Shown: positions 385-52,901 of the stretch, in pieces
Layout: each line of letters starts with the position of its first letter
Numbering within the stretch: position 1 is the first letter of the stretch
Source: a phage
Length of the DNA stretch: 64,000 bases
Strand: one strand, 5' to 3'
Assembly: GCA_015370545.1 (NCBI GenBank)
Contig: GCA_015370545.1_3932.1
Made by a program: the position numbers and the translations under genes
The notes under the pieces: model-generated
The model's database searches: none
What the model saw: the letters and a program-made list of their open reading frames with translations, nothing else
What the model was told of the DNA's origin: nothing

Positions 385-1560
385 ATGGCAGTAGGTGAAA
401 TTCAAATTAGTGCCTTGCCACAAGCGGCCTTACCAATTGATTTGAGTGATATCTTCCACCTTAAGCAAGGTGTTGAGGATAAAAGATGTACGCTTGAGCA
501 GTTGTTAGCACCTCACGCATCTTTGAGGAATAACCCTCATGGTGTAACTAAATCACAAGTAGGTCTTGATAATGTTATTAACTCTCTTCAATTAGTTGCA
601 GCTAATAACTTGTCAGATGTTGTAAGTGTTGCTGAGGCAAGAGCAAATCTACAAATTATGTCGTCAGAGGAAGTGAATAACTTAATTCAGCAACATATTG
701 ACGACAAAAGTAACCCACACAATACAACGAAAGCACAGGTCGGTTTAAGTAATGTTCAGAACTGGACAACATCCAATCTGTACAATGAAGATGCTGATAA
801 ATATGCTACCGCGAAAGCAGTTAATAATTTATACAAAGCTATCCAAGCGTCATATCCAGTAGGGACTATTCACCTGTCTGTTAACTCTGCTAACCCATCC
901 ACTTACTTACTTTGTGGAGGTACTTGGGAGTTAGTTTCTAAAGGTAGAGCACTAGTTGGTTATGATACAGATTCTAGACCTGTTGGTTCAACGTTTGGTT
1001 CTCAGACTGTAGCATTAACAAATAATAATTTACCAGCACATACACACTCTATCTATTTAACAGGTGGTGGTCACACACACTCTGCAAGCGTATCTATCTC
1101 TAGTTTTGATTATGGTTCAAAAAGTACATCAACTTTTGATTACGGTACAAAAACGACTAATAGTGCTGGTGCTCATACTCACACGTTTAGTGGCACAACA
1201 AGTAATGCTGGTAACCACAACCATAGAGTACCTATGAGGGGTAATGATAGAGGTGGTACAAATGCTATTACTGCATCTGCTGATGCTGGTGTTGGTAATG
1301 CTATGTATACTGATTTAGCTGGTGCTCACACCCATAGCTTCTCAGGCACAACTGCATCATCTGGTGCTCATAGTCATACTGTTGCAATTGGTGCTCATAG
1401 TCACACTGTTAATATTGGTTCACACAGCCATACAGGTACTGTTACTGTTTCTAGCTCCGAGCATACACACTCAGGAACATCTGGTTCTGTTGGTGGTGGT
1501 CAAGCTTTCAGTGTTGAGCAGCCATCTTTTGTAGTGTATGTGTGGCAGAGAACAGCTTAA
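385..1560 (+). CDS. tail fibre protein with His-x-His repeat receptor-binding tip
   Basis: 391-aa ORF; C-terminal third is full of HTHS/HSHT/GAHSHTV repeats like the metal-binding tips of T4-type fibres; C-terminal module shared with the next ORF (ends ...AFSV...W.RTA). Confidence 0.7.
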   Translation: MAVGEIQISALPQAALPIDLSDIFHLKQGVEDKRCTLEQLLAPHASLRNNPHGVTKSQVGLDNVINSLQLVAANNLSDVVSVAEARANLQIMSSEEVNNLIQQHIDDKSNPHNTTKAQVGLSNVQNWTTSNLYNEDADKYATAKAVNNLYKAIQASYPVGTIHLSVNSANPSTYLLCGGTWELVSKGRALVGYDTDSRPVGSTFGSQTVALTNNNLPAHTHSIYLTGGGHTHSASVSISSFDYGSKSTSTFDYGTKTTNSAGAHTHTFSGTTSNAGNHNHRVPMRGNDRGGTNAITASADAGVGNAMYTDLAGAHTHSFSGTTASSGAHSHTVAIGAHSHTVNIGSHSHTGTVTVSSSEHTHSGTSGSVGGGQAFSVEQPSFVVYVWQRTA

Positions 1561-1570
1561 GTTCTTTACA

Positions 1571-1590
1571 GGGGCTTTATAGCCCCTTTT
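1571..1590 (+). terminator. rho-independent terminator
   Basis: GGGGCT-TTAT-AGCCCC hairpin followed by TTTT, just after the stop at 1560. Confidence 0.6.
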
Positions 1591-1606
1591 AAGAGGAAAA
1601 TTCATA

Positions 1607-4156
1607 ATGGCAGATTACAAATTGAGTCAATTAAACTCAATCGACACAATTCGTTCAGAAGACCTATTGCACATCAGAGTTAAGAAAAGACCTGAAATGT
1701 TGGGTGATGAAGACCGTAGAATGACCTATCAAGACTTCTTGGCTTCCTTCAAACTAGAAAGGTTTGTTCAGATTGCTGGAAGCACTATGACTGGGGATTT
1801 AGGTATTGTCAAGTTACTTTACGGTGGAAAGTCTGTATTTGACCCTACAGGCTCTTCTGAGATTACTATTGGGGATATTTTAAAGACTTTTAAAATTAAC
1901 GCAAATGGTCTTAAACTAACTATTGCAGATGCTTCAAGGTCAGCAACTGTTTATCATACTCTGAATAAGCCAAGTCCTAATGAGCTTGGTATGAGAACTA
2001 ATGAAGAGAATGATACAAGATACGCAAGACTTGCTATCACAAACACATTCTCTGGAACTCAAAATATTCAAGGTGATGCTAACTTACTTCGCCTTAGAAA
2101 CCAAAATGCAAATAATGCACAATATATCGAAGGTGTAAACCTAGATGGTTCGGCTAGATGGTGGGTTGGTATTGGTAGTAATGGCTCTGACGAAGTAAAG
2201 CTGTACAATAACAAATACAACTCAGCCTTGACTGTTGCAAGTAATGTCTCTGTTAATAAGTCTTTAGCAATCACTGGTCAAGTTCAACCTTCAGATTTCT
2301 CTAACTTAGATGCTAGATACTTCACTCAGACAGTTGCTAATCAGAGATTTGCACAGTTAGCTGGTAATAACACCTTTACAGGTGCTAACACATTTAGGAC
2401 TATGAGTGTTATCTCAAATGCTGCTGCTATCACACTGCAATGTGCATCAGCAAACGAATCCCTGTATCTACTTGCAAAAGATTATGAAGGTGGAAACTTA
2501 TGGTATCTTGGTAAAGGTAGTTCAGGTGCTGGTGTAACTATCTACAACTATACCACTAACACCTCTTTAGTCTTAGATGCTGCTGGAGTATCAGCAAATA
2601 AAAATGTCAGAATCACTGGTCAAGTTCAACCTTCAGATTGGGCTAACATTGACTCTAGATATATTCCGGCAGCAACATTAAGTACAATTGCAAGAACTAA
2701 TGCACAAAATGCTTTTAATGGTGTACAGAAAGTTGTTACGGATAATGAAGCCCTAATTGTGAAAAACTCTACTCAGAACAGACCATTGTATATCCGTGGT
2801 GTGGACACTGCTAATGTGTCAAGGTGGTGGGTAGGTGTTGGTGGGGCAGATACTAATGATGTAACCCTAAATAACAGTTTTTCTGGCACTCAGTTAGTTC
2901 TCGGGAATACAACATCATACATTAACAAAACATTGACTATTGCTGGACAAGTTCAACCTTCAGATTTCTCTAACTTAGATGCTAGATACTTTACGCAAAG
3001 TGCTAGTGATAGTAGATACCTAAGAATCAGAAGCACTAGCTTCAATGTGGGAAACACTGATAAGTGGGCTAAAATTGCCACTGTTGTGATGCCACAATCA
3101 GCATCCACTGCTGTTATTGAGGTATTTGGTGGGTCAGGTTTTAATATTAATACACCAAACCAAGCAGGTAAATGTGAAATTGTTCTGCGAACTTCAAATA
3201 ACAATCCAAAGGGCTTAAATGTTGTTGCTTGGAGAACATCAGAGAACACCATTGTCAGGGATATTGGTTATGTGAATACTTCTGGAGACACCTATGATAT
3301 TTACTATCTTGCTGGTACGTATCAAAACAGCACAACGACAAGGGTTCAGTCTTCTAGTAATGCAAGTGTACAGTTGTTTGAAGTCCCACAGACATTTGAT
3401 GATGCTCCACAAGGTATTGTGAAGGGTACAATTGCAAAATACTACACAAGTTTGCAAAAACCAACCCCTTCAGATATTGGTGCATACACTAAAGCAGAAA
3501 CTGACCAGAAGATTGCAGAAGCAATTAGTGACTCTACAGACCTGAATAAAATCTATCCAGTAGGTATTGTGACGTGGTTTAACAGTAATGTTAACCCTAA
3601 TACAGCACTTCCTGGTCTAACTTGGACGTACCTGAATAATGGTGTTGGTAGAACTATTAGAATTGCAGCAGCAAACGGTTCAGATGTTGCTACAACTGGT
3701 GGTTCAGACTCTGTAACGTTGTCTGTTGGTAACTTGCCTTCACACACGCACAGCTTCTCTGCTACTACTTCATCATTTGACTATGGTACTAAGACTTCTA
3801 GCACAACTGGTAACCACAACCACAACAGAGGTACTATGGAGATTACTGGTTCATTTGGTTACTTCAGAAGTGACGCTAGTAGCTTCTACACAGCAAGTGG
3901 TGCATTCTACCTCGGTAGTCAGGCAGGTTCTAAAGGGTATACTGGTAACAACTTTACTAATGGTATCCCTGTCAACTTCAACGCATCAAGAAACTGGTCT
4001 GGTGTAACGAATACAACAGGTAACCACAGCCACACTGTTGGTATTGGTGCTCACAGCCACACAGTTAGCGGTAACACAGGTGGTACTGGTTCTGGTTCAG
4101 CATTTAGTGTTACTAACCAGTTCTATAAGTTAATGGCTTGGGTAAGAACTGCTTAA
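1607..4156 (+). CDS. long tail fibre protein
   Basis: 849-aa ORF; threefold internal repeat ITGQVQPSD(F/W)(S/A)N(L/I)D(A/S)RY; C-terminal HxH repeats (HTHSFS, GNHNHN, GNHSHTVGIGAHSHTV) and ending shared with ORF 385..1560. Confidence 0.75.
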   Translation: MADYKLSQLNSIDTIRSEDLLHIRVKKRPEMLGDEDRRMTYQDFLASFKLERFVQIAGSTMTGDLGIVKLLYGGKSVFDPTGSSEITIGDILKTFKINANGLKLTIADASRSATVYHTLNKPSPNELGMRTNEENDTRYARLAITNTFSGTQNIQGDANLLRLRNQNANNAQYIEGVNLDGSARWWVGIGSNGSDEVKLYNNKYNSALTVASNVSVNKSLAITGQVQPSDFSNLDARYFTQTVANQRFAQLAGNNTFTGANTFRTMSVISNAAAITLQCASANESLYLLAKDYEGGNLWYLGKGSSGAGVTIYNYTTNTSLVLDAAGVSANKNVRITGQVQPSDWANIDSRYIPAATLSTIARTNAQNAFNGVQKVVTDNEALIVKNSTQNRPLYIRGVDTANVSRWWVGVGGADTNDVTLNNSFSGTQLVLGNTTSYINKTLTIAGQVQPSDFSNLDARYFTQSASDSRYLRIRSTSFNVGNTDKWAKIATVVMPQSASTAVIEVFGGSGFNINTPNQAGKCEIVLRTSNNNPKGLNVVAWRTSENTIVRDIGYVNTSGDTYDIYYLAGTYQNSTTTRVQSSSNASVQLFEVPQTFDDAPQGIVKGTIAKYYTSLQKPTPSDIGAYTKAETDQKIAEAISDSTDLNKIYPVGIVTWFNSNVNPNTALPGLTWTYLNNGVGRTIRIAAANGSDVATTGGSDSVTLSVGNLPSHTHSFSATTSSFDYGTKTSSTTGNHNHNRGTMEITGSFGYFRSDASSFYTASGAFYLGSQAGSKGYTGNNFTNGIPVNFNASRNWSGVTNTTGNHSHTVGIGAHSHTVSGNTGGTGSGSAFSVTNQFYKLMAWVRTA

Positions 4157-44269: not shown

Positions 44270-45055
44270 ATGGGTATTGTAAAAATAATTAATGGTGATA
44301 TCTTTGCCGCATTTGATAAAGGTAAGTTTGACATCATCGGTCACGGTTGCAACTGTATGAATTTAATGAGTGCAGGTATCGCTGACAAGATTTCTAAACT
44401 TTACCCAAAAGCATATGAGACCGATACAGAAGTTTATCTGTATGCAGGTGGTATAGGACACAAACCCTGTGAAAATTTACTAGGTAATTTCTCTGTAGCA
44501 CGTTTAAAACAAGGTCGTATAGCTAATCTTTACACTCAGCTTAAGACTGGTAAAGATGCCCGATACAGTGCTTTAGAGTCATCTTTGAAACAGCTTAACA
44601 GATACTGTGAAGTTAATCAGTTGAAGAAAGTTGGGTTACCTATGATTGGTGCAGGTATCGGTGGACTTGACCCTCAAGCCGTTACCGTTATCATTAATCA
44701 GGTGATGAAGAGTGTAGATGTGTATCTGTATGTCTACGAAGGAGAGATGTACCACAAGTTACGCTCAGGTTGGAATAACTACTGCGAACCAGAATACTTT
44801 GCAGGTGTAGTAACGTTCACAGACAATGCAGTTACCCTCTTCAGACGAAGAAAAGGTAAGATACATCAAAGTAACCCTCCGGTTGAAAAGATGTCTCTAA
44901 GTAACGCTCTAGTTACCCACCTGTCGAAGAGCAATCACAGAATTGCAGTAACATTTGGCAGTGATGCAGACACATATATCTATGCAAGGACTGATGAAGA
45001 TATCGAGGAGATTTTCTCATCACAAGAAGTTACCTTCTTAGACGCAAAGAACTAA
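44270..45055 (+). CDS. macro-domain-like (ADP-ribose binding/processing) protein
   Basis: 261 aa; N-terminal GDIF...DIIGHGCNCMNLMSAGIA and glycine-rich VGLPMIGAGIGGLDP fit the macro-domain pattern; extra C-terminal region. Confidence 0.5.
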   Translation: MGIVKIINGDIFAAFDKGKFDIIGHGCNCMNLMSAGIADKISKLYPKAYETDTEVYLYAGGIGHKPCENLLGNFSVARLKQGRIANLYTQLKTGKDARYSALESSLKQLNRYCEVNQLKKVGLPMIGAGIGGLDPQAVTVIINQVMKSVDVYLYVYEGEMYHKLRSGWNNYCEPEYFAGVVTFTDNAVTLFRRRKGKIHQSNPPVEKMSLSNALVTHLSKSNHRIAVTFGSDADTYIYARTDEDIEEIFSSQEVTFLDAKN

Positions 45056-45085
45056 TAAACTCTGTAGAATATTCACAATAGATTA

Positions 45086-45130
45086 AGCCTTCCTTATCTG
45101 GTAAATTTTTCAGGTAAGGAAGGCTTTTTT
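45086..45130 (+). terminator. rho-independent terminator
   Basis: 10-bp stem GCCTTCCTTA/TAAGGAAGGC followed by TTTTTT. Confidence 0.6.
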
Positions 45131-45320
45131 ATTTCAAGATTGTGCAGGTAGAGTTCTGTAGAGAAATCTGTAGAGAAAATTTTGAACTCCAAAGAGAAAA
45201 TTCATTTTCAAACTGTGCAGGTAATCTCCAAAGAGCTTTTTCATTTTCAAAACGTGCAGACCCCGCTCAGGTCGGGCAAGAAAAATCATTTTAGAATTGT
45301 GCAGGTAGGTGGATGCAGGT
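45120..45320. repeat. four direct repeats of TTTTCAAAnTGTGCAGGTA-type unit in ORF-free DNA
   Basis: copies near 45125, 45205, 45245 and 45290; flanking CTCCAAAGAG also repeats. Confidence 0.5.
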
Positions 45321-45484
45321 GGGGATGTCGCCATTTCTCACAAGGCTAACACATCTGGAAATAAAAGTCAACAGAAAAATTTGTAGCGGATTGAAAAATA
45401 ATTCTTGATTGTAGTTCTGTTTTGTGGTAGTCGCGTGCGCCCGTTTCATTACAATTTTTGCAAAAATATTTTTAAAATTCCTAT

Positions 45485-45575
45485 TGACTCTTTGAGTATG
45501 GTTATCTAATATTTGCATCAACGGGGAGGGAATGACCTTCCCCACTAAGTAAAGTCCTAAACTGGAGATTCTAAA
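45485..45575 (+). promoter_or_regulatory. promoter + conserved 5' hairpin leader + RBS
   Basis: TTGACT-17 nt-TAATAT, then CAACGGGGAGGGAATGACCTTCCCC hairpin, then AAACTGGAGATTCTAAA ATG. Confidence 0.55.
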
Positions 45576-45956
45576 ATGGCATACCGTGCACCTAAATTCA
45601 TCAACAAAGACAACTTCCGCAACGCACTGGAGAAGTCACTTGATGAAAAATTTAACGGCAAATTGATTGTTGTTCACGCATTCAATTTTAAGTATGATAT
45701 TAACGGGAATAAAATCAACCATTACACGGCAACCATGTTAGATGGTACGCTATCAAGTGAAAAAGCCGTACTGAATGCACTTGCAGGACGTGGTAAAAAC
45801 CTGATAAGCTGCAATAAGAGACGTTATCAAGGTGGCGCATATGGTTATGATGATGCTGTTTACCATCTTGAAAATATGGGCTATTCAGTGGAGAAAGCTG
45901 GAGCGTCTCAAATAATTGGTAGTGATGGTTATGTGACAATCTTCAAAATTAAATAA
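45576..45956 (+). CDS. small cassette protein 1
   Basis: 126-aa ORF behind conserved leader. Confidence 0.55.
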   Translation: MAYRAPKFINKDNFRNALEKSLDEKFNGKLIVVHAFNFKYDINGNKINHYTATMLDGTLSSEKAVLNALAGRGKNLISCNKRRYQGGAYGYDDAVYHLENMGYSVEKAGASQIIGSDGYVTIFKIK

Positions 45957-46042
45957 AAGTACTTTACAAGGGGCTTATAGTTCGATAAAGTAAGCCCCAG
46001 ATAAAGAGCTTTATCACTCAATCCTAAATTGGAGATTCAAAA
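45957..46042 (+). promoter_or_regulatory. conserved intergenic cassette (hairpin + palindrome + RBS)
   Basis: AAGTACTTTACA-GGGGCTTA...TAAGCCCC-AGATAAAGAGCTTTATC-...TGGAGATTCAAAA; one of four near-identical units. Confidence 0.55.
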
Positions 46043-46300
46043 ATGGCTATTATCAAAAACGTTGTAGTTCCTGCAAAAACTCGTGATGACGCTCGCATCA
46101 TGGCGAAAAAGTTAGGCGGGAAAGTGGTTGACAACGGAAAACAATCTGCTGTAAGATGGAGCGTGAAGGCTGATAAGCAACTAACCTTAAAACGCAGTTC
46201 AAACAATCTTTTTAAAGGTGTAAAATCACTCGGTAAAGTGAACGTGTTTACCAAAAAAGGCTATAAAATGCACTTATCATTAACTGGCAATTTAATCTGA
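46043..46300 (+). CDS. small cassette protein 2 (basic)
   Basis: 85-aa ORF behind conserved leader. Confidence 0.55.
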   Translation: MAIIKNVVVPAKTRDDARIMAKKLGGKVVDNGKQSAVRWSVKADKQLTLKRSSNNLFKGVKSLGKVNVFTKKGYKMHLSLTGNLI

Positions 46301-46390
46301 TAAAGTACTTTACAGGGGGCTTAAAAGCTGATATCTTAAGCCCCAGATAAAGAGCTTTACCACTCAATCCTTAAACTAGGAGATTCAAAA
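46301..46390 (+). promoter_or_regulatory. conserved intergenic cassette
   Basis: same unit as 45957..46042. Confidence 0.55.
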
Positions 46391-46903
46391 ATGAAAACTG
46401 TAGAAGCTACCTTTGAAGTTGTAAAAGAAAAATTTTCCATCATTTACGAAGCTGTTAATTGCTTTGAAGCAAGCCATAACCTTGATAATTGGGAGTTTAC
46501 AGATGACCATCAAGGCGGCGTGACTATTAAAAACCCCAACTGTCAGCGTAATGATTTTAAATATGCAATCCCTTTACATTACAGCCTTAAACAGCTTTCA
46601 AGTGACTATGCAAAACAAGGCCGGGAAAATCCATCAAAAGAGGCTTACATAAGCTTACAGAAAGAACTAGAAAGAGATTTAGAGGCTTCAGAATACAACC
46701 TTGCCGCGAAAGTTGTCGATGCAAATGGTCAAACAATTTTAGATAGTTTTTATATTGGTTACGCTTTCGATTGGTGCTATAGTGACGGCGATGATTTAGA
46801 GGATAGACTAAAAGAAGAGGTGAGCAATTCAGACGCAGAATCTGAAGTATTAGAACGCTTGGAAGCATTAAAAGATTCAGTGATGAATATCTTTAAGAAC
46901 TAA
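46391..46903 (+). CDS. small cassette protein 3 (acidic C-terminus)
   Basis: 170 aa; D/E-rich C-terminal region. Confidence 0.55.
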   Translation: MKTVEATFEVVKEKFSIIYEAVNCFEASHNLDNWEFTDDHQGGVTIKNPNCQRNDFKYAIPLHYSLKQLSSDYAKQGRENPSKEAYISLQKELERDLEASEYNLAAKVVDANGQTILDSFYIGYAFDWCYSDGDDLEDRLKEEVSNSDAESEVLERLEALKDSVMNIFKN

Positions 46904-46990
46904 ATAGATTTCTTTACACGGGGCTATCAAGCTGATAAGATAGCCCCAGATAAAGAGATTTATCAACTATCCTAAACTGGAGATTCAAAA
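46904..46990 (+). promoter_or_regulatory. conserved intergenic cassette
   Basis: same unit (GGGGCTATCAAGCTGATAAGATAGCCCC hairpin variant). Confidence 0.55.
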
Positions 46991-47287
46991 ATGAAATTAT
47001 CAAATAAAGTCCGTGAAAATCTAAGCAAGTTACTCAACAAAATTGATTTTATCGAGACATCAAGGAATAGTCATGATGTTATGGAATGGTTACACGGAAA
47101 AATCAAAGGCCGTCGTGTAGTGATTTGCTTATGGAATAGTTGCAGGGAATATAAAAAACCTGTATTACAAGTCAATATCTATGATGATACTTTTAAAAGC
47201 CCTGTAAAGTCTAAAAGTGATTTATTAGAATCCTATGAGATAACTGTAAATGGCAAAGTATCAAGTAAAGAGGAAACACCATGTTAA
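46991..47287 (+). CDS. small cassette protein 4
   Basis: 98-aa ORF. Confidence 0.5.
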   Translation: MKLSNKVRENLSKLLNKIDFIETSRNSHDVMEWLHGKIKGRRVVICLWNSCREYKKPVLQVNIYDDTFKSPVKSKSDLLESYEITVNGKVSSKEETPC

Positions 47288-47613
47288 TGACTGGTATCAC
47301 TGCAATCATTGCCATTTTCGCGCTATATAAGGCATATAAAGCCTATAATCTAGCAAATAAGGCAATCACACAGCAGGTTAGCAATAGCCTTGTAGAAAGC
47401 TTTCTAGGGCGTCTCAGTGATGAGCAAATAAAGCGGTTAGAAATGAGCTTCAGATTCAAAGCGAAAACCTATCAGATAAGTGACATCTTCAAGGATGATT
47501 TCCAGTTAGTCGATGATTATAATTCTCTGATAAATGCTTTAAATATCAGTGACTTAAAAGACTACTACGCTGTAATTGTTCAAGAGTTGAGCAAACGAAA
47601 ACAAAACTGTTGA
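47281..47613 (+). CDS. small cassette protein 5 (membrane anchor)
   Basis: 110 aa; N-terminal hydrophobic segment ITAIIAIFALY; overlaps previous stop. Confidence 0.5.
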   Translation: MLMTGITAIIAIFALYKAYKAYNLANKAITQQVSNSLVESFLGRLSDEQIKRLEMSFRFKAKTYQISDIFKDDFQLVDDYNSLINALNISDLKDYYAVIVQELSKRKQNC

Positions 47614-47702
47614 CACTGATTTTTAGATAGATTAAATTACACATCAACGGGGAGGGAACAACCTTCCCACTAAATAAAGTCCTTAAACTAGGAGATTCTA
47701 AA
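47610..47702 (+). promoter_or_regulatory. promoter + conserved 5' hairpin leader + RBS
   Basis: TTGACA-17 nt-TAAATT, CAACGGGGAGGGAACAACCTTCCC hairpin, TAGGAGATTCTAAA ATG. Confidence 0.6.
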
Positions 47703-47975
47703 ATGTATACTACTAACAATGGCCTCACTTTGAACGTCACACTACGTCACTATGTAGATGGTGTCATGCACTTTGAAGATTTACAAGCTGAACAACATAT
47801 CTTAGATTGGCAAGTCGCAGGACTCCAAAAAACTGCTACGGGATACGGTAAAAAGATTCCAACTAGTTGGAAAGTTCACTATGAAGGACGTTTGCGCAGA
47901 ATTTATCAAGATGTGCAAAGCAATAGCGCATCGAGTTACATTATAGTAAAAGGTGAAAAACTGCATTTAGTATAA
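47703..47975 (+). CDS. small cassette protein 6
   Basis: 90-aa ORF. Confidence 0.55.
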   Translation: MYTTNNGLTLNVTLRHYVDGVMHFEDLQAEQHILDWQVAGLQKTATGYGKKIPTSWKVHYEGRLRRIYQDVQSNSASSYIIVKGEKLHLV

Positions 47976-48060
47976 AGTACTTTACATGGGGTTTAAAAGT
48001 TGGTATCTTAAGCCCCAGATAAAGAGCTTTACCCCTAAATCCTAAATTGGAGATTCAAAA
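47976..48060 (+). promoter_or_regulatory. conserved intergenic cassette
   Basis: same unit as 45957..46042. Confidence 0.55.
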
Positions 48061-48465
48061 ATGGCTATTAATAATCGTGAGTTATCAATCTTAAAAGCAC
48101 GTTTAACCGTTAATCGAATCAATGTTATCACGTCATCAGCACCAGACGAGACATTACACAACATTATCGGGAAGATTCAAGGTGTTATCTTAGACGTTGA
48201 GAATGTAAAAAACTCATTAGCAGACGTTGCAGCAGGTGTTACACTAGACGGCGCACAATATGAAATGATTGACATGTTAGGCAAATCAAAGGTTATGAAT
48301 AAAGAGTTAGACTTAAAAATGTTTCGATTTGCCGTGAAAGTATGGCTATCTGTCGAGTATGATGCTAATTTTGCAATTGCTGATTTCTTTGCCACTTGGT
48401 TGCAACGTAACTTAACAAATCATGATTTTCGTGATATCTGTGATGCAATTTACGCAGAACTTTAA
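48061..48465 (+). CDS. small cassette protein 7
   Basis: 134-aa ORF. Confidence 0.55.
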   Translation: MAINNRELSILKARLTVNRINVITSSAPDETLHNIIGKIQGVILDVENVKNSLADVAAGVTLDGAQYEMIDMLGKSKVMNKELDLKMFRFAVKVWLSVEYDANFAIADFFATWLQRNLTNHDFRDICDAIYAEL

Positions 48466-48473
48466 AAATTTTA

Positions 48474-48565
48474 TTGACACTGATTTTTAGATAGACTAAA
48501 TTACACATCAACGGGGAGGGAACAACCTTCCCACTAAATAAAGTCCTTAAACTAGGAGATTCAAA
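48474..48565 (+). promoter_or_regulatory. promoter + conserved 5' hairpin leader + RBS
   Basis: TTGACA-17 nt-TAAATT; near-identical to 47610 copy. Confidence 0.6.
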
Positions 48566-49108
48566 ATGAAATGCTTTCACGGTACTACTCAAGAAAACTT
48601 TATCAACCTGATTAATAACGGTGATAAACCATCAGGTGTATGGAATTGTTCGGATATGGACGGCAATTTTTACGTGTACCCAGAAAATAAACTCTATGGT
48701 GATGATGAGGAAGAGATAGCATCGGAAGGTATCCAGCAAGCTCTAGGAAATGCCACTATCACGGCAGCTTTTCAGATGAAAACTCAAAATATTGTTATCT
48801 TAGAACTTGACATTCCAGAGGATGAGCTAAATGATGATTATTCTTGTGATAACATGTCAAATATAGCAAGCTTTACAGAGTACTTTGATGTAAATTGGAT
48901 TAAAAAGGTCTATACAACAGAGTTCAACGCTATGTATTCACCTTTTTGTCTCCCTTCACTGGATAACCCAAATTTGAATTATCTTGATGAAACATTGGAG
49001 CTACTTGCTAAAAGTATCCAACAATCCGACAGTATTCAGGTTTTTTGTGACATCATGGATACACTGACAGAAAACATTGTAGAGAGTGATTTAAAGGTCT
49101 TTTTCTAA
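48566..49108 (+). CDS. small cassette protein 8 (highly acidic)
   Basis: 180 aa; very D/E-rich with almost no Arg. Confidence 0.55.
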   Translation: MKCFHGTTQENFINLINNGDKPSGVWNCSDMDGNFYVYPENKLYGDDEEEIASEGIQQALGNATITAAFQMKTQNIVILELDIPEDELNDDYSCDNMSNIASFTEYFDVNWIKKVYTTEFNAMYSPFCLPSLDNPNLNYLDETLELLAKSIQQSDSIQVFCDIMDTLTENIVESDLKVFF

Positions 49109-49142
49109 AAACCTATACATTCACCTTATAAACACTGATTAA

Positions 49143-49160
49143 CCCCTTACAGGGGCTTTT
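49143..49160 (+). terminator. rho-independent terminator
   Basis: CCCCT-TACA-GGGGC followed by TTTT. Confidence 0.5.
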
Positions 49161-49174
49161 AGAGGGCTTAAATC

Positions 49175-49408
49175 ATGCTTACAACCATTTATCTCATCCT
49201 TTCTATCTGTAACGGTCATTCATGTGACTTTAAAGGGCTTGAAGAGTTTACAGGAAGTAAAGAAAATGCTATTCAGGTTTGCCAGATAGCAAGACAAGAC
49301 TATCCCGCCAGTGACGACATTCAATGCTACTTTAAGACAGAAGATGAAGACGGCATCTATTTTGACAGCGTTGACGGTCAATATGAAATTATCATTGAAA
49401 AAGACTAG
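49175..49408 (+). CDS. small cassette protein 9
   Basis: 77 aa; hydrophobic N-terminus, acidic body. Confidence 0.5.
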   Translation: MLTTIYLILSICNGHSCDFKGLEEFTGSKENAIQVCQIARQDYPASDDIQCYFKTEDEDGIYFDSVDGQYEIIIEKD

Positions 49409-49499
49409 ACAAGCCTGATAAAAGTCTGTAAATTGTCAATCAACGGGGAGGGAATGACCTTCCCCACTAAATAAAGTCCTTAAACTAGGAGATTCAAAA
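49406..49499 (+). promoter_or_regulatory. promoter + conserved 5' hairpin leader + RBS
   Basis: TAGACA-17 nt-TAAATT then CAACGGGGAGGGAATGACCTTCCCC hairpin. Confidence 0.55.
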
Positions 49500-49841
49500 A
49501 TGGCTTATGTAACCGTAATTACCGATAAAGCTGGCTCATCTTGGTCAACTCAGGTTAGTGATAAGATGTCGCCTATGCAGTGCCTAAAATACTTTGAGCA
49601 GTGGAACAAAGGCGAGGATGTAAGCCCCTTTCAAGTGATGCAAATCATCCATACAGATAACGAAGGGAATAAAACGACCTTGAACAGTGAATACTACGCA
49701 AGCCGTTTTGAAACGAGAAGTAAAACAATGAAGCTTTTACGTGAATCCGGCTATTCTCATATTGCCGCGCTAATCTGGGATGACCTGCTAAAAAGCCAGC
49801 GTATCAGCTATGTAAAACCTGAAAAAATATTCATCAGTTAA
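49500..49841 (+). CDS. small cassette protein 10
   Basis: 113-aa ORF. Confidence 0.55.
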   Translation: MAYVTVITDKAGSSWSTQVSDKMSPMQCLKYFEQWNKGEDVSPFQVMQIIHTDNEGNKTTLNSEYYASRFETRSKTMKLLRESGYSHIAALIWDDLLKSQRISYVKPEKIFIS

Positions 49842-49872
49842 TCAATAACTTACAAAAAACTTTTAAAAAAGT

Positions 49873-50062
49873 GTTGACAATACCCCTTGACATTGGTAAC
49901 TTTGTTCGAGGGGGTTTATCTAAAAGGGATTCACTTAATAGATTCTTTATAGATAAACTTAAAAAATTGCTTGCAAAGGCAAATCAAAACAAGTAAATTA
50001 CTAATCAACGGGAAGGGATTAACCTTCCCACTAAGTAAAGTCCTTAAACTAGGAGATTCAAA
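49873..50062 (+). promoter_or_regulatory. tandem promoters + conserved 5' hairpin leader
   Basis: TTGACAATACCCCTTGACA at 49873, then TTGCAA-17 nt-TAAATT at 49971, then CAACGGGAAGGGATTAACCTTCCC hairpin. Confidence 0.5.
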
Positions 50063-50593
50063 ATGAACAAGTTTCAAGCTATCAACTATATTCGCTCATC
50101 CAACGTTATGACTAAGCCCGTTAAAGATACCTTCGAATTTCGTTGCAACGGTGTACACTTTGCAACTATCACTAAATCAGAAAACGGGGCTTATTATATA
50201 CATCGTCGTAATGCCTCTACTGTTGTAGTCTCTCACTTTATGCAAGCTGTAGCAGAACTGTTACCGCTATTCTTAGGTATTTACTTAGATGAGTGCAAAA
50301 ACGTTCGCAACCACGTTAAAGACCTTTTAAATGGTTATAAAATGGCTTATGAACGTTCTATCAAGAATCTTAACAAGTTCTATAAAGCCCCTGAAAATAC
50401 TGTTTCAATGGCTTACAGTGTAAGCGGTGAGTTGGTTAGCCTCTTTGAAGTGGAAGAAATCGCGTTGCATGACTTACGCCCTAGCGGTTACTCTAAGACA
50501 CTAGAGGAAGGTTTAACGTTCAATATCAAGAACTTAGAAAAAACTTTAAAAGATATTGAAAAAGATATTGACGAGACAATCAAAAATCTGTAA
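50063..50593 (+). CDS. small cassette protein 11
   Basis: 176-aa ORF. Confidence 0.55.
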   Translation: MNKFQAINYIRSSNVMTKPVKDTFEFRCNGVHFATITKSENGAYYIHRRNASTVVVSHFMQAVAELLPLFLGIYLDECKNVRNHVKDLLNGYKMAYERSIKNLNKFYKAPENTVSMAYSVSGELVSLFEVEEIALHDLRPSGYSKTLEEGLTFNIKNLEKTLKDIEKDIDETIKNL

Positions 50594-50655
50594 ATTGTCA
50601 ATCAACGGGGGATAACCTCCCCCACTAAACAAAATCCTAAACTGGAGTTATCAAG
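50566..50655 (+). promoter_or_regulatory. promoter-like + conserved 5' hairpin leader
   Basis: TAAATT box at 50591 then CAACGGGGGATAACCTCCCCC hairpin; -35 uncertain. Confidence 0.45.
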
Positions 50656-50919
50656 ATGGAAAACGTAGAATTAACCACACTTTTACAAATTGCAACCGAC
50701 AAAGAAGATGTAGCATTATTCCACCGTATCGAAAGCGATTTGTTCAATGGTGAAATCATTAAAGAATCTTACGAAGTTGTCGGATTCAAAGATGGTAAAG
50801 CATTTGGCTTTTTTGACCTCGACAAAAGCAAAGCGGTTACAATGTACGATGTTCTATCTTGTGAAATTCTGACAAAATACAACGAAAAAAGGCTTGCAAC
50901 CTACGCCAATATGCAGTAA
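50656..50919 (+). CDS. small cassette protein 12
   Basis: 87-aa ORF. Confidence 0.55.
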   Translation: MENVELTTLLQIATDKEDVALFHRIESDLFNGEIIKESYEVVGFKDGKAFGFFDLDKSKAVTMYDVLSCEILTKYNEKRLATYANMQ

Positions 50920-50986
50920 ATTACTAATCAACGGGGAGGGAATGACCTTCCCACTAAACAAAGTCCTAAACTGGAGAATCTAAATT
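50894..50986 (+). promoter_or_regulatory. promoter + conserved 5' hairpin leader + RBS
   Basis: TTGCAA-18 nt-TAAATT then CAACGGGGAGGGAATGACCTTCCC hairpin. Confidence 0.5.
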
Positions 50987-51235
50987 ATGTCAACTATCCG
51001 CGTAACTGTTAATGCTTATGGCTGCCACAAACTTGATGCAAAATTCGATATCGGTGGAACAGATAACACCTTTGACCTTATCAAAATGCTGATTCAGCAG
51101 GTGATACCAGATTATAACCCTACTGATGACTTCTGGAAAGATGCCGTAAAAGAAGCCATAAACGAGGAATCTCACTACCATTATTGGGGTGACTTGATTG
51201 TCTCTCTATACTACAGCAAACAAGGCTACAACTAA
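50987..51235 (+). CDS. small cassette protein 13
   Basis: 82-aa ORF. Confidence 0.55.
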   Translation: MSTIRVTVNAYGCHKLDAKFDIGGTDNTFDLIKMLIQQVIPDYNPTDDFWKDAVKEAINEESHYHYWGDLIVSLYYSKQGYN

Positions 51236-51273
51236 TCGACGCAACGGGGCTAAATAGCCCCAGATACCTTTAC

Positions 51274-51296
51274 AGCCCCTTAAATGGGGCTTTTTT
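51274..51296 (+). terminator. rho-independent terminator ending the cassette array
   Basis: AGCCCC-TTAAAT-GGGGCT followed by TTTTTT; preceded by a second GGGGCTAAATAGCCCC hairpin. Confidence 0.65.
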
Positions 51297-51299
51297 ACG

Positions 51300-52860
51300 T
51301 CTATCGAATCCTTATACAATCCCTTTCCCTTTCCTTTCTAGAATCTTATCAGACCTTAAAAAGCAATAACTCTATAGTCTACTCTATAACCTCTTATCAA
51401 ATCAACTTAAATATAAGCCAATAACCCCAGAAAGGGGATGGCCCATTAAAACGCTCTATAAAGCTCTATAACAGCCTTATCAACCTAACTTAAGCAATCA
51501 TATTAACCCACTCTAAAAAGCCCTTTATAGAGCTTCCCAGAGCCTTAAAAGAATCTTATAAGGGTGAAAGCTTATAGGCTGGCTAGTATCTTGTGAATAA
51601 CTAAACAATCCCCTTGATAGTCACTAAAAAGCATGTTATAGGGGCTATAAAGTTACTTCAAAGTAACGTAAAAAAGGCTATAAAGTTACGTAAATGCTAG
51701 CCCCCTTAACATTTTCTTAACAATTTCTTAACAATCCCTACATAGTTATGCTTGTTAGAGACTTGTTAGCCCCTTGTTAAATCTCTGTTACAACCATGTA
51801 AAAGCCTTGTAAGAACCTTTGACATAGCCTTAAAAGCCCTGTAAAGCCCTATAAAGAGCTATCCATACAGTTGGGCTGTAGTTACTAGGGAGAGACTTAA
51901 AAGGGGCTATACAGAGCTATAGAGGGCTTTTAAGAGGTATGTTTAAAGAATCACTAAGAATCAAAGGGAACGATAAGAAAAGAGATAGTGACCATGTTAA
52001 TAGCTTGTTAAAAAGATTAAACACTTGTTAGAAACTTGTTAATTATCCCTACAAAATAACTCTTTAAAATTAACTTGTTAGCTCTTGTTAGTCATCTGTT
52101 AAGACTCTGTAAAGACTATTCAGCACTTGTTAGAAAACTGTTAAGTTCTTGTTAGTTCTGTTAAGAAACTGTTAAGACCTTTGGAGAGTTGTTAAGAGCT
52201 TGAGAGAGTTGTTAAGAGATTGTTAAGGATATTTTAAAATTCTGCAAAGTACTTGTAAGGGAGCTGTTAAGGGCTACCAAGCAGATATACATCTTCTACA
52301 GATATTTTTCAGTTCCTTCAAAGACCCTAAAAAATGACTTGATAGCCCTATTTTATAAAAATTTTAAAATTCTGAATAATTACCTAGACAGTCTTTTAAA
52401 AATACAGGTAGAAACAGGCTTATAAGATACCTTGTTAGTACCGTGTTAGACCTTGTGAGATAAGGTCTGTGAAGATATTCCTGTTAAGTTTGTTAAAACA
52501 GTCTATATAGAGGCTTAGTAGTACCTAGTGAACATCTATAGAGGGTATCATAGCTAACCTAGAGATTAAGAGGTGTATAGGGGCTTCTAAGAGGGTATAG
52601 AGAGATGGTTAAGGTGATTGTATAGGTTGTTAAGAAGGATTGTTAGAAGAGTGTTTAGAGGGCTATTTAGAAGGGTTATACAGAGGGCTATTAAGACCAC
52701 TAGATAGTTACTAAGATACTATATAGTACTATATAACTATATAGAGAGTAAGATTAAGAAGGTTGTTAAGAAGGATAGATATCTTATTCACATATGATGG
52801 TGACCCAGAGGTTGGGACAACCGATAAAATTTTATAAAAATATAAATTTCGTAAATTTTA
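51300..52860. repeat. ORF-free iteron-rich region (candidate origin or packaging/regulatory locus)
   Basis: no ORF of 60 aa or more; dozens of (C/T)TGTTA(A/G) units at about 10-11 bp spacing (densest 52010-52260); repeated TATA(A/C)AG(A/C)GCTAT and GGCTATAAAGTTAC units; ACTATATA triple near 52720. Confidence 0.6.
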
Positions 52861-52901
52861 CTCAATAAAAAGCCCCCAATTAAGGAGGCTCTTAAGATAT
52901 T

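Follow-up and report, generated by a model that had tools for sequence, protein, structure and literature searches.

In a 64,000-nucleotide (nt) stretch of phage DNA (contig GCA_015370545.1_3932.1 of GenBank assembly GCA_015370545.1; hereafter, the window), a block at 45.5-51.0 kb holds an array of 11 repeated cassettes for 13 small genes. The cassettes combine a predicted promoter, a hairpin, and a ribosome-binding site, and they are of two interleaved classes (seven of class A and four of class B). The best-supported explanation, from comparing sequences, is that they are a family in the Ounavirinae resembling the promoter-early stem-loops (PeSLs) of T4-like phages. The hairpin is most likely an RNA structure, which would lie near the 5' end of early mRNAs and would also form as an intercistronic structure in read-through RNA.

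Positions 45300-51300 of the window are 100% identical to Escherichia phage vB_EcoM-Ro111lw (MH571750; Felixounavirus, Ounavirinae), in whose record all 13 genes in the region are annotated as hypothetical proteins. The same segment matches 259 phage records, mostly of Felix O1-like phages of Escherichia, Salmonella, Shigella, and Citrobacter. When we used one cassette as the query, we found 245 phage records with matches at 1-8 places each. These hits are confined to the Ounavirinae (Felixounavirus, Mooglevirus, and Suspvirus), except for one Staphylococcus phage record with the same sequence. That record (GU169904, Staphylococcus phage SA1) has six cassette copies at 88% identity at 132607-132713 and looks like a chimeric or contaminated assembly. 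Elsewhere in the 64-kb window, there is no further copy of either class.

The initial annotation of this DNA had claimed seven copies of a conserved hairpin, each just downstream of a promoter, and all seven are confirmed. Searching the window for GGGGAGGGAANNACCTTCCCC, with up to 3 mismatches allowed, gave six matches on the + strand (45523, 47649, 48513, 49445, 50010, and 50933) and none when the window was shuffled 100 times; the remaining copy, at 50607, has a shorter hairpin (GGGGGAtaaccTCCCCC) within flanks of identical type. Each copy belongs to a class A cassette, which is about 95 nt long and heads a small gene; the seven lie between 45484 and 50989, all on the + strand. Their parts come in a set order: the -35 hexamer, a 17-nt spacer, the -10 hexamer, 10 nt (nnnnATCAAC), the hairpin, ACTAA..AAA(G/A), TCC(T)TAAAYT(A)GGAG, 6-10 nt, and ATG. 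The claimed arrangement of the promoter, with a 17-nt spacer and TAAATT or TAATAT as the -10 hexamer, a few nucleotides upstream of the hairpin, holds for 7 of 7 copies, and the spacings are fixed. Specifically, the spacer is exactly 17 nt in every copy, and exactly 10 nt always separate the -10 hexamer from the first paired G, which is thus the 11th nucleotide after it. The -35 hexamers are TTGACA (twice), TTGACT, TTGACG, TTGCAA (twice), and TAGACA, and the -10 hexamer is TAAATT in six copies and TAATAT in one. When the predicted leaders were folded, the hairpin dominated. Its own folding energy is -10.5 to -14 kcal/mol, and its stem has 7-8 bp except in one copy, where it has 6 bp. A weak mini-hairpin of 3-4 bp adjoined the Shine-Dalgarno (SD) sequence.

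The leader from the hairpin to the ATG, of about 60 nt, is nearly identical between cassettes, and in each of the 11 cassettes of both classes, GGAG is separated from the ATG downstream by 6-10 nt. The sequence said to follow the hairpin, AAAGTCCTTAAACTAGGAGATTC, is exact in only four of the seven class A copies; the other three carry another allele, (A/G)TCCTAAACTGGAG. Across all 11 cassettes, the SD leader (for example, 45555-45566) has two alleles, TCCT-TAAACT-AGGAG and TCC-TAAAYT-GGAG. The additional T is never seen without the additional A, nor the A without the T (243 instances in 96 contexts, with 0 mixed forms). This coupled indel is consistent with a mini-hairpin of 3-4 bp that partly covers the SD sequence or with plain linkage: because there are only two haplotypes and the two positions are 6 nt apart, linkage explains the coupling as well as pairing does. 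Separately, cassette 1 has a variant in Felix O1 (L055, about 1850-1925) and in L008, L027, L041, and L051. This variant keeps the promoter, TTGAC(T/A)...TA(A/C)TAT TTGCATCA, with GAC-GGGC-aagcaa-GCCC in place of the GGGGAGGG hairpin and a shorter leader.

The four class B cassettes (45963-48063), which the initial annotation did not mention, have TTTACA, a 17-nt spacer, and TAAAGT, TATCTT, or TAAGAT. Their 9-bp hairpin (GGGGCUUA.../...UAAGCCCC) spans the spacer and the -10 hexamer and is followed by AGATAAAGAGC... and then by the SD leader that they share with class A. As the class B hairpins end just before the predicted transcription start, they could fold only in read-through RNA from upstream. 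Also unmentioned was a cassette remnant after the last gene of the array. It mixes parts of class A and class B and has neither a promoter nor a gene. The coordinates of these features are given in Table 1.

Table 1. Cassettes of the array, the cassette remnant, and the terminators at the array boundaries (positions in the window)
Feature	Position	Strand	Details
Class A cassette 1	45484..45578	+	-35 TTGACT 45484-45489; -10 TAATAT 45507-45512; hairpin 45523-45543 (8 bp, -14.0 kcal/mol); SD mini-hairpin 45555-45566; ATG 45576
Class A cassette 2	47610..47705	+	-35 TTGACA 47610-47615; -10 TAAATT 47633-47638; hairpin 47649-47668 (7 bp); SD mini-hairpin 47680-47693; ATG 47703
Class A cassette 3	48474..48568	+	-35 TTGACA 48474-48479; -10 TAAATT 48497-48502; hairpin 48513-48532; ATG 48566; 98% identity to cassette 2 (93 nt)
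Class A cassette 4	49406..49502	+	-35 TAGACA 49406-49411; -10 TAAATT 49429-49434; hairpin 49445-49465 (8 bp); ATG 49500
Class A cassette 5	49971..50065	+	-35 TTGCAA 49971-49976; -10 TAAATT 49994-49999; hairpin 50010-50029 (GGGAAGG/CCUUCCC; A-U vs. G·U in other copies); ATG 50063
Class A cassette 6	50568..50658	+	-35 TTGACG 50568-50573; -10 TAAATT 50591-50596; short hairpin 50607-50623 (GGGGGA/UCCCCC, 6 bp); ATG 50656
Class A cassette 7	50894..50989	+	-35 TTGCAA 50894-50899; -10 TAAATT 50917-50922; hairpin 50933-50952; ATG 50987
Class B cassette 1	45963..46045	+	TTTACA-17-TAAAGT; 9-bp hairpin 45970-45998 (GGGGCUUAU/AUAAGCCCC type); AGATAAAGAGC...; ATG 46043
Class B cassette 2	46309..46393	+	hairpin 46316-46344; -10 TATCTT 46332-46337; ATG 46391
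Class B cassette 3	46913..46993	+	TTTACA 46913-46918; -10 TAAGAT 46936-46941; hairpin about 46920-46947 (GGGGCUAUC/GAUAGCCCC); ATG 46991
Class B cassette 4	47981..48063	+	hairpin 47988-48016 (one U·G pair); -10 TATCTT 48004-48009; ATG 48061
Cassette remnant after the last array gene	51242..51266	+	CAAC + GGGGCUA-aau-UAGCCCC + AGATA (CAAC-GGGGCTAaatTAGCCCC-AGATA)
Intrinsic terminator, upstream array boundary	45085..45126	+	17-bp stem + T-run; terminator scan
Intrinsic terminator, downstream array boundary	51274..51291	+	GCCCCttaaatGGGGC + TTTTTT; terminator scan

We examined the promoter part in IMG/VR with a pattern built from the flanks only and a filter for the SD leader, which gave 130 instances and 97 distinct cassettes. 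Among these 97, information peaks at an A-tract 5-9 nt upstream of the -35 hexamer, at TTGACA, and at TAAATT, and the 17-nt spacer is nearly information-free. Conserved hexamers at a conserved distance, with a spacer of variable sequence between them, are the signature of a selected sigma70 promoter. Judged by consensus, the cassettes carry predicted sigma70-like early promoters with an AT-rich upstream tract. ATCAAC is invariant in this set by construction, but it is also invariant, or is TTCAAC, in cassettes of the other genera that were found via the leader alone. About a dozen flank matches in IMG/VR were on unrelated contigs, had neither the hairpin nor the SD leader, and were discarded as chance matches. 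One of the cassette sites is annotated as a promoter, by similarity, in the GenBank record of phage AYO145A.

RNA polymerase of E. coli usually starts 7-8 nt after the -10 hexamer and prefers a purine that follows a pyrimidine. By this rule, and with the first paired G 11 nt after the -10 hexamer, transcription should start at the A residues of ATCAAC. The class A RNA would then begin with AAC or AC and continue into the stem; a start at 7-9 nt would leave 2-4 free nucleotides. This prediction agrees with the initial annotation, which placed the stem-loop at or very near the 5' end of the transcript.

The cassettes have much in common with PeSLs, which were described in the T4-like phages RB49/phi1, PST/T4, and nt-1/KVP40 (Arbiol et al. 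2010, PMC2839356; Comeau et al. 2014, PMC4122927). In a PeSL, a sigma70 early promoter lies downstream of an AT-rich tract and is combined with a stem-loop of the Gn-loop-Cn type, which contains G-T pairs, and with the SD sequence and ATG of a small ORFan. PeSLs cluster in hyperplastic regions of ORFans and are the end-points of indels that distinguish sister phages; their promoter and terminator activities were shown with reporters, and mini-circles were detected by PCR (PMC2839356, PMC4122927). Like PeSLs, the cassettes of Felix O1-like phages are repeats of about 100 bp that bring together an AT-rich tract, a sigma70-type promoter (17-nt spacer), a Gn-loop-Cn stem-loop in which G-T pairs occur, and the SD sequence and ATG of a small gene. 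They also cluster among variable ORFans, and the indels and replacements that distinguish relatives end in them. In both systems, the position of the stem-loop relative to the promoter varies by subclass, and the class B arrangement, with the stem-loop across the spacer and the -10 hexamer, is the commonest one among the PeSLs of RB49. At the level of sequence, all of the defining features of PeSLs are present in the Ounavirinae cassettes. There are also differences. PeSLs belong to T4-like phages rather than to the Ounavirinae; the leader and the SD sequence are much more uniform in the Ounavirinae cassettes; and the class A stem-loop is predicted to be transcribed at the 5' end of its own cassette's mRNA. 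Furthermore, promoter, terminator, and mini-circle activities are measured properties of PeSLs, whereas the promoters of the Ounavirinae cassettes are predicted from sequence.

These elements had been seen before in Felix O1, but the genome paper lists them merely as direct repeats (Whichard et al. 2010, PMC3185647). Its 39-bp direct repeat, TTGACACTGGTTTTTAGATAGATTAAATTACACATCAAC, is the class A promoter, and its 57-bp direct repeat, CTTTACATGGGGCTTAAAAG...CCCCAGATAAAGAGC, is the class B element. The authors stated that the promoters and the temporal control of Felix O1 were not understood, and they did not recognize a promoter, hairpin, cassette, or shuffling role for the repeats. The paper on phage wV8 does not mention the elements. 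Our literature search, which was itself incomplete, found no PeSL outside T4-like phages and no report that links PeSLs to Felix O1-like phages.

As with PeSLs, the cassettes are linked, in comparisons between related phages, to differences in gene content. We compared positions 45000-51500 of the window to six relatives (AYO145A, SPJ41, Felix O1, VpaE1_ev035, H12, and UAB_Phi87) with BLASTN. Colinearity breaks only at 45525/45578, 45950/46302, 47672-47706, 48521-48569, 49439, and 50647/50916, and every one of these breaks is inside a cassette. The alignments that flank the breaks overlap by 20-60 nt of leader; that is, a leader present once in one phage aligns with two leaders of the other. 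We also tabulated gene families against cassette classes in ten phages. Families F20, F22, and F25 are inserted, F12 and F7+F13 are deleted, and F21 is an alternative first gene that replaces F10+F8. Furthermore, the cassette in front of F7, F10, and F4 is of class A in some phages and of class B in others. Orthologous promoters, which we recognized by their conserved spacers, have identical hairpin variants in 9 of 101 comparisons, versus 42 of 383 for unrelated cassettes. Orthologous promoters thus differ in their hairpins about as frequently as unrelated cassettes do, and the promoter half and the hairpin/leader half of the cassette reassort. The overlapping homology and the reassortment add to the evidence from the breakpoints, and we infer that recombination caused these end-points.

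A simple test for concerted evolution, which compared how often paralogous and orthologous pairs have identical hairpins, found no difference from the baseline (7/71 and 9/101, respectively, versus 42/383). Rare hairpin variants were common to paralogous cassettes of one genome more often than expected (5 observed versus 2.0 expected, P = 0.04), although this result is marginal and is from the rare-variant test only. In SPJ41, all five class A copies have the short hairpin type. This suggests gene conversion between paralogous cassettes.

The hairpin itself seems to be maintained as a structure. We built a hairpin-blind set whose anchors were a -10-like hexamer, 4 nt, (A/T)TCAAC, and the SD leader, so that no hairpin sequence was used. 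It contains 179 instances, with 76 distinct segments and 47 distinct hairpins. All 179 instances fold at one position, with the hairpin starting 3-4 nt after the first A of AAC. Among the variants from Felixounavirus, G·U, G-C, and A-U alternate at one position of the stem, and both arms shorten together, giving stems of 8, 7, or 6 bp. The cassettes of Mooglevirus and Suspvirus have the same promoter geometry (-10 TAAAGT, 10 nt, and the hairpin), with the inner stem and loop replaced, as in GGGGC-aagauaaa-GCCCC, GGGGU-aagcaa-GCCCC, GGGA-agcaa-UCCC, and GGGGAG-ggaaaa-CUCCCC. Counting from the base of the stem, pairs 1-3 are nearly always G-C, and pairs 4 and 5 can be G-C, A-U, G·U, C-G, or U·G. 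When the 3' halves were swapped among the 47 variants, folding weakened on average from -11.8 to -9.85 +/- 0.27 kcal/mol, and the native value was reached in 0 of 500 swaps. A covariation check across related phages, which the initial annotation had proposed, gave weak support when pairs were counted formally (see below). From the replacement in other genera and the arm swaps, we conclude that the structure is conserved with sequence turnover, and we do not claim classical or statistically clean covariation.

These results make it very unlikely that the hairpin is a functionless passenger kept by duplication and gene conversion. Such a passenger would fit the Mooglevirus and Suspvirus cassettes that have no hairpin (discussed below) and the rare variants that are common to paralogous cassettes in one genome. 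On the other hand, the hairpin persists at the same position in other genera after its inner stem and loop were replaced, all 47 distinct variants fold and arm-swapped chimeras fold worse, and the adjacent promoter spacer has not been homogenized.

Does the inverted repeat act as RNA or as DNA? In most variants, the sense strand folds better than the antisense strand because each G·U pair of the sense strand is an A·C mismatch on the antisense strand, which favors an RNA structure on the coding strand. This preference, together with the retention of a hairpin where the sequence was replaced, supports the RNA-level stem-loop of the initial annotation. In contrast, the repeat might act in DNA, either as the operator of a dimeric repressor that shuts off the early promoters or as a cruciform or hairpin target for site-specific recombination. 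The repeat's location, at about +3 to +25, is typical of operators. But in DNA the commonest variant has a G·T mismatch (A·C on the opposite strand), which most copies retain, the spacing of the half-sites is not constant as both stem and loop vary in length, and the homology at the breakpoints covers the whole leader with no defined core site. We therefore give a role in DNA very little credence. As a known type of element, a DNA operator was rejected on its defining feature, given the variation in stem and loop and the G·T mismatch.

As the initial annotation held, the hairpin does not look like an intrinsic terminator: none of the 11 cassettes has a U-tract after the hairpin, and a terminator scan calls none of them, while the phage's real terminators do have one. 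The hairpins are followed instead by ACUAAAUAAAG or AACAAUCC. The only consensus terminators on the + strand are the two at 45085-45126 and 51274-51291, and they bracket the array. The intrinsic (rho-independent) terminator was thus rejected as a known element because its defining U-tract is absent. A looser version of this idea is that the hairpin attenuates or terminates transcription by polymerase arriving from the upstream gene, so that each gene depends mostly on its own promoter for expression. This role was proposed for the stem-loops of PeSLs and tested with reporters: in RB49/phi1, the stem-loop lowered expression of a downstream lacZ about as much as the rrnB T1 terminator did (PMC2839356); the class B hairpins, being wholly upstream of the predicted start, could act only on read-through RNA; and a lone hairpin remnant lies after the last gene of the array. 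Yet the array has canonical terminators at its boundaries and no U-tracts within its cassettes, and just downstream of its own -10 hexamer, the class A hairpin would be oddly placed for a pure terminator. Overall, attenuation is a possible role, albeit an unlikely one.

We also considered whether the hairpin and ATCAAC form a binding site for a phage or host protein that co-regulates the early cassettes, such as an antiterminator of the N/boxB type, a translational repressor, or a RegB-like endonuclease that cuts at GGAG. In the nut sites of phage lambda (boxA/boxB) and the put RNAs of HK022, an RNA hairpin lies shortly downstream of early promoters, and the cassettes resemble them in having a hairpin just downstream of predicted early promoters. 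Consistent with a bound protein, the stem always begins with GGG directly after CAAC; the arms are never inverted (a C-run and then a G-run), which implies some constraint on the sequence as well; and GGAG is found in both the 5' arm and the SD sequence. However, the loops vary freely (AAUGA, AACAA, GAUAA, AAGCAA, AAGAUAAA; 4-9 nt) and the stems range from 4 to 8 bp, whereas in boxB the loop is the determinant; and the cassette precedes each gene, while nut and put precede each operon. No candidate binding protein was identified. We consider this explanation quite improbable. Of the known elements that it might involve, lambda boxB was rejected because boxB has a conserved 5-nt GNRA-like loop and the loops of the 47 variants differ in sequence and length (4-9 nt). 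No boxA-like element or N-like protein was identified, although no search was aimed at an N-like protein. A search against Rfam at the gathering threshold found only tRNAs, and a permissive search (E <= 1) of 45300-51400 found nothing credible. An RNase III site of the type in the early region of T7 was rejected as well: it requires a stem of about 20 bp or more, and these stems are 4-9 bp.

Taken as a whole, we consider it probable, though far from certain, that the array is made of modular expression cassettes, in which an RNA hairpin near the 5' end protects or insulates early mRNAs and the leader provides homology for the exchange of ORFans. Each repeated module would comprise an A-tract, the -35 hexamer, a 17-nt spacer, the -10 hexamer, nnnnATCAAC, a hairpin of a G-run and a C-run, a short A-rich linker, a GGAG SD sequence, and an ATG. 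Host RNA polymerase with sigma70 would start at the A residues of ATCAAC and make an mRNA with 2-4 free nucleotides and then a stable hairpin (-10 to -15 kcal/mol). This hairpin would make the cassette's own transcript less open to RppH and RNase E acting from the 5' end, and in read-through transcripts, it would be an intercistronic structure that insulates neighboring small cistrons. The leader of about 60 nt between the hairpin and the ATG would be the shared homology at which whole small genes are inserted, deleted, or replaced.

The proposed protection has precedents. The leader of T7 gene 10 is a 5'-terminal stabilizing stem-loop. Stem-loops of this kind are also found in the ompA and papA mRNAs of E. 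coli (Emory, Bouvet and Belasco 1992, as cited in PMC3997798). The class A leaders would resemble all three in that a stable hairpin lies a few nucleotides from the (predicted) 5' end, the structure is more conserved than the sequence, and an accessible SD sequence lies downstream. They differ in that class A, with 2-3 unpaired nucleotides predicted, would be close to the limit at which RppH and RNase E are blocked (PMC8833179).

Several observations weigh against the explanation of the cassettes as modules with a protective hairpin and a recombining leader. First, RppH and RNase E of E. coli need at least two unpaired 5' nucleotides and prefer at least three, and RppH favors a purine as the second nucleotide (PMC8833179). 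The stabilization suggested by the initial annotation is therefore less clear-cut. If transcription starts at the second A, the 5' end would be poorly accessible to both enzymes, but a start at the first A (5'-AAC) would leave three unpaired nucleotides with a purine second. Such an RNA would be a good substrate for RppH and RNase E, and protection of the 5' end could be weak or would be only partial. Our literature search found no transcription-start, RNA-seq, or half-life data for Felix O1-like phages. Second, some cassettes in Mooglevirus and Suspvirus have the promoter and the leader without the G/C hairpin, so the hairpin is not obligatory and is dispensable in some contexts at least. Third, evidence for covariation is thin. 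A MAFFT alignment of the 40 most diverse hairpins pushed all of the gaps to the 3' side and was unusable for counting pairs. In a covariance-model alignment, just one pair was doubly changed (A-U to G-C, 10 cells), and moving the partner by -1 gave pairing as good as in the true register (93% versus 90%), because the arms are runs of G and of C. Fourth, the location of the breakpoints is, on its own, permissive and not proof that the cassettes cause recombination, because indels of whole genes must end between genes and nearly all of the intergenic DNA is cassette. Fifth, expression of the homologous array of Felix O1 is broadly early but not uniform. By reverse transcription-PCR, open reading frames (ORFs) 16, 20, 21, and 22 peak at 5 min, but ORFs 17, 19, and 23 peak at 25 min, and ORFs 19 and 23 are behind class A cassettes (PMC3185647).

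A more elaborate proposal is that the invariant ATCAAC-GGG...CCC hairpin is a dedicated cis-acting element with two roles. Its structured 5' end would save the early ORFan mRNAs while host mRNA decays, and it would be an exchange point, through excision and integration of mini-circles, at which Ounavirinae trade early genes for host takeover or anti-defense, making it a promoter-bearing analogue of the attC cassettes of integrons. We regard this combination as improbable.

The cassettes provide eleven candidate early promoters, with a uniform leader, in one 6-kb block of the genome. Felix O1-like phages are widely used in Salmonella typing, biocontrol, and therapy. The cassettes may also explain why the gene content of this block differs among near-identical phages, which bears on annotation and on the prediction of genes for host takeover or anti-defense. 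If the analogy to PeSLs is true, then promoter-hairpin-SD cassettes that shuffle ORFans are not limited to T4-like phages and would represent a strategy that large virulent phages share or have reached convergently. With the Ounavirinae, a known kind of element extends to a new and practically important group of phages.

We scanned the array genes against PHROG and Pfam, and the two scans together cover all 13. In the PHROG scan of 10 of the genes, the only matches were to families of unknown function, and in the Pfam scan of 10 of the genes there was no match. The gene at 49175-49408 is the sole array gene with an intergenic gap upstream and neither class of cassette in it. Within 49109-49175, a terminator-like hairpin (CCCCTTACAGGGGCTTTT) precedes this gene, which has its own SD sequence (GAGGG) and travels with the upstream 180-amino-acid gene in relatives. 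Before class A cassette 5, there is a 130-nt intergenic spacer (49842-49970) in which two TTGACA motifs overlap and a CCCCT...GGGGG hairpin directly precedes TTTAT. A promoter is annotated at the homologous place in AYO145A.

Both sides of the array also have repeats. Between the upstream terminator and the first class A promoter are three direct repeats of about 34 nt (CTCCAAAGAG...TTCATTTTCAAACTGTGCAG, 45187-45304), and the record has a small minus-strand ORF annotated nearby. Between the array's terminator and the next genes, which are on the minus strand, lie 1.6 kb (51300-52900) without any ORF of at least 60 amino acids. This segment is dense in short direct repeats: (C)TTGTTA(A/G) occurs about 20 times, and CTATAAAG/TATAGAG motifs are numerous. 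Felix O1 has an equivalent gap between ORF23 and ORF24. This segment may be an iteron-type origin or a packaging region.

We noticed two other features far from the array. Probable tail fiber genes at 1156-4077 contain coding repeats of the GAHSH/THTV type, and genes 76 and 77 of Felix O1 were reported to share such repeats. At 62557-63972, there is a cluster of tRNA genes, with six tRNAs at the Rfam gathering score, and a 28-nt spacer motif (CAAATTTACAGAAGACCGTTTACAGCAA) recurs between some of them. In phage H12, the homologous tRNA cluster is preceded by a gene of 471 amino acids that is annotated as an RNA-binding protein.

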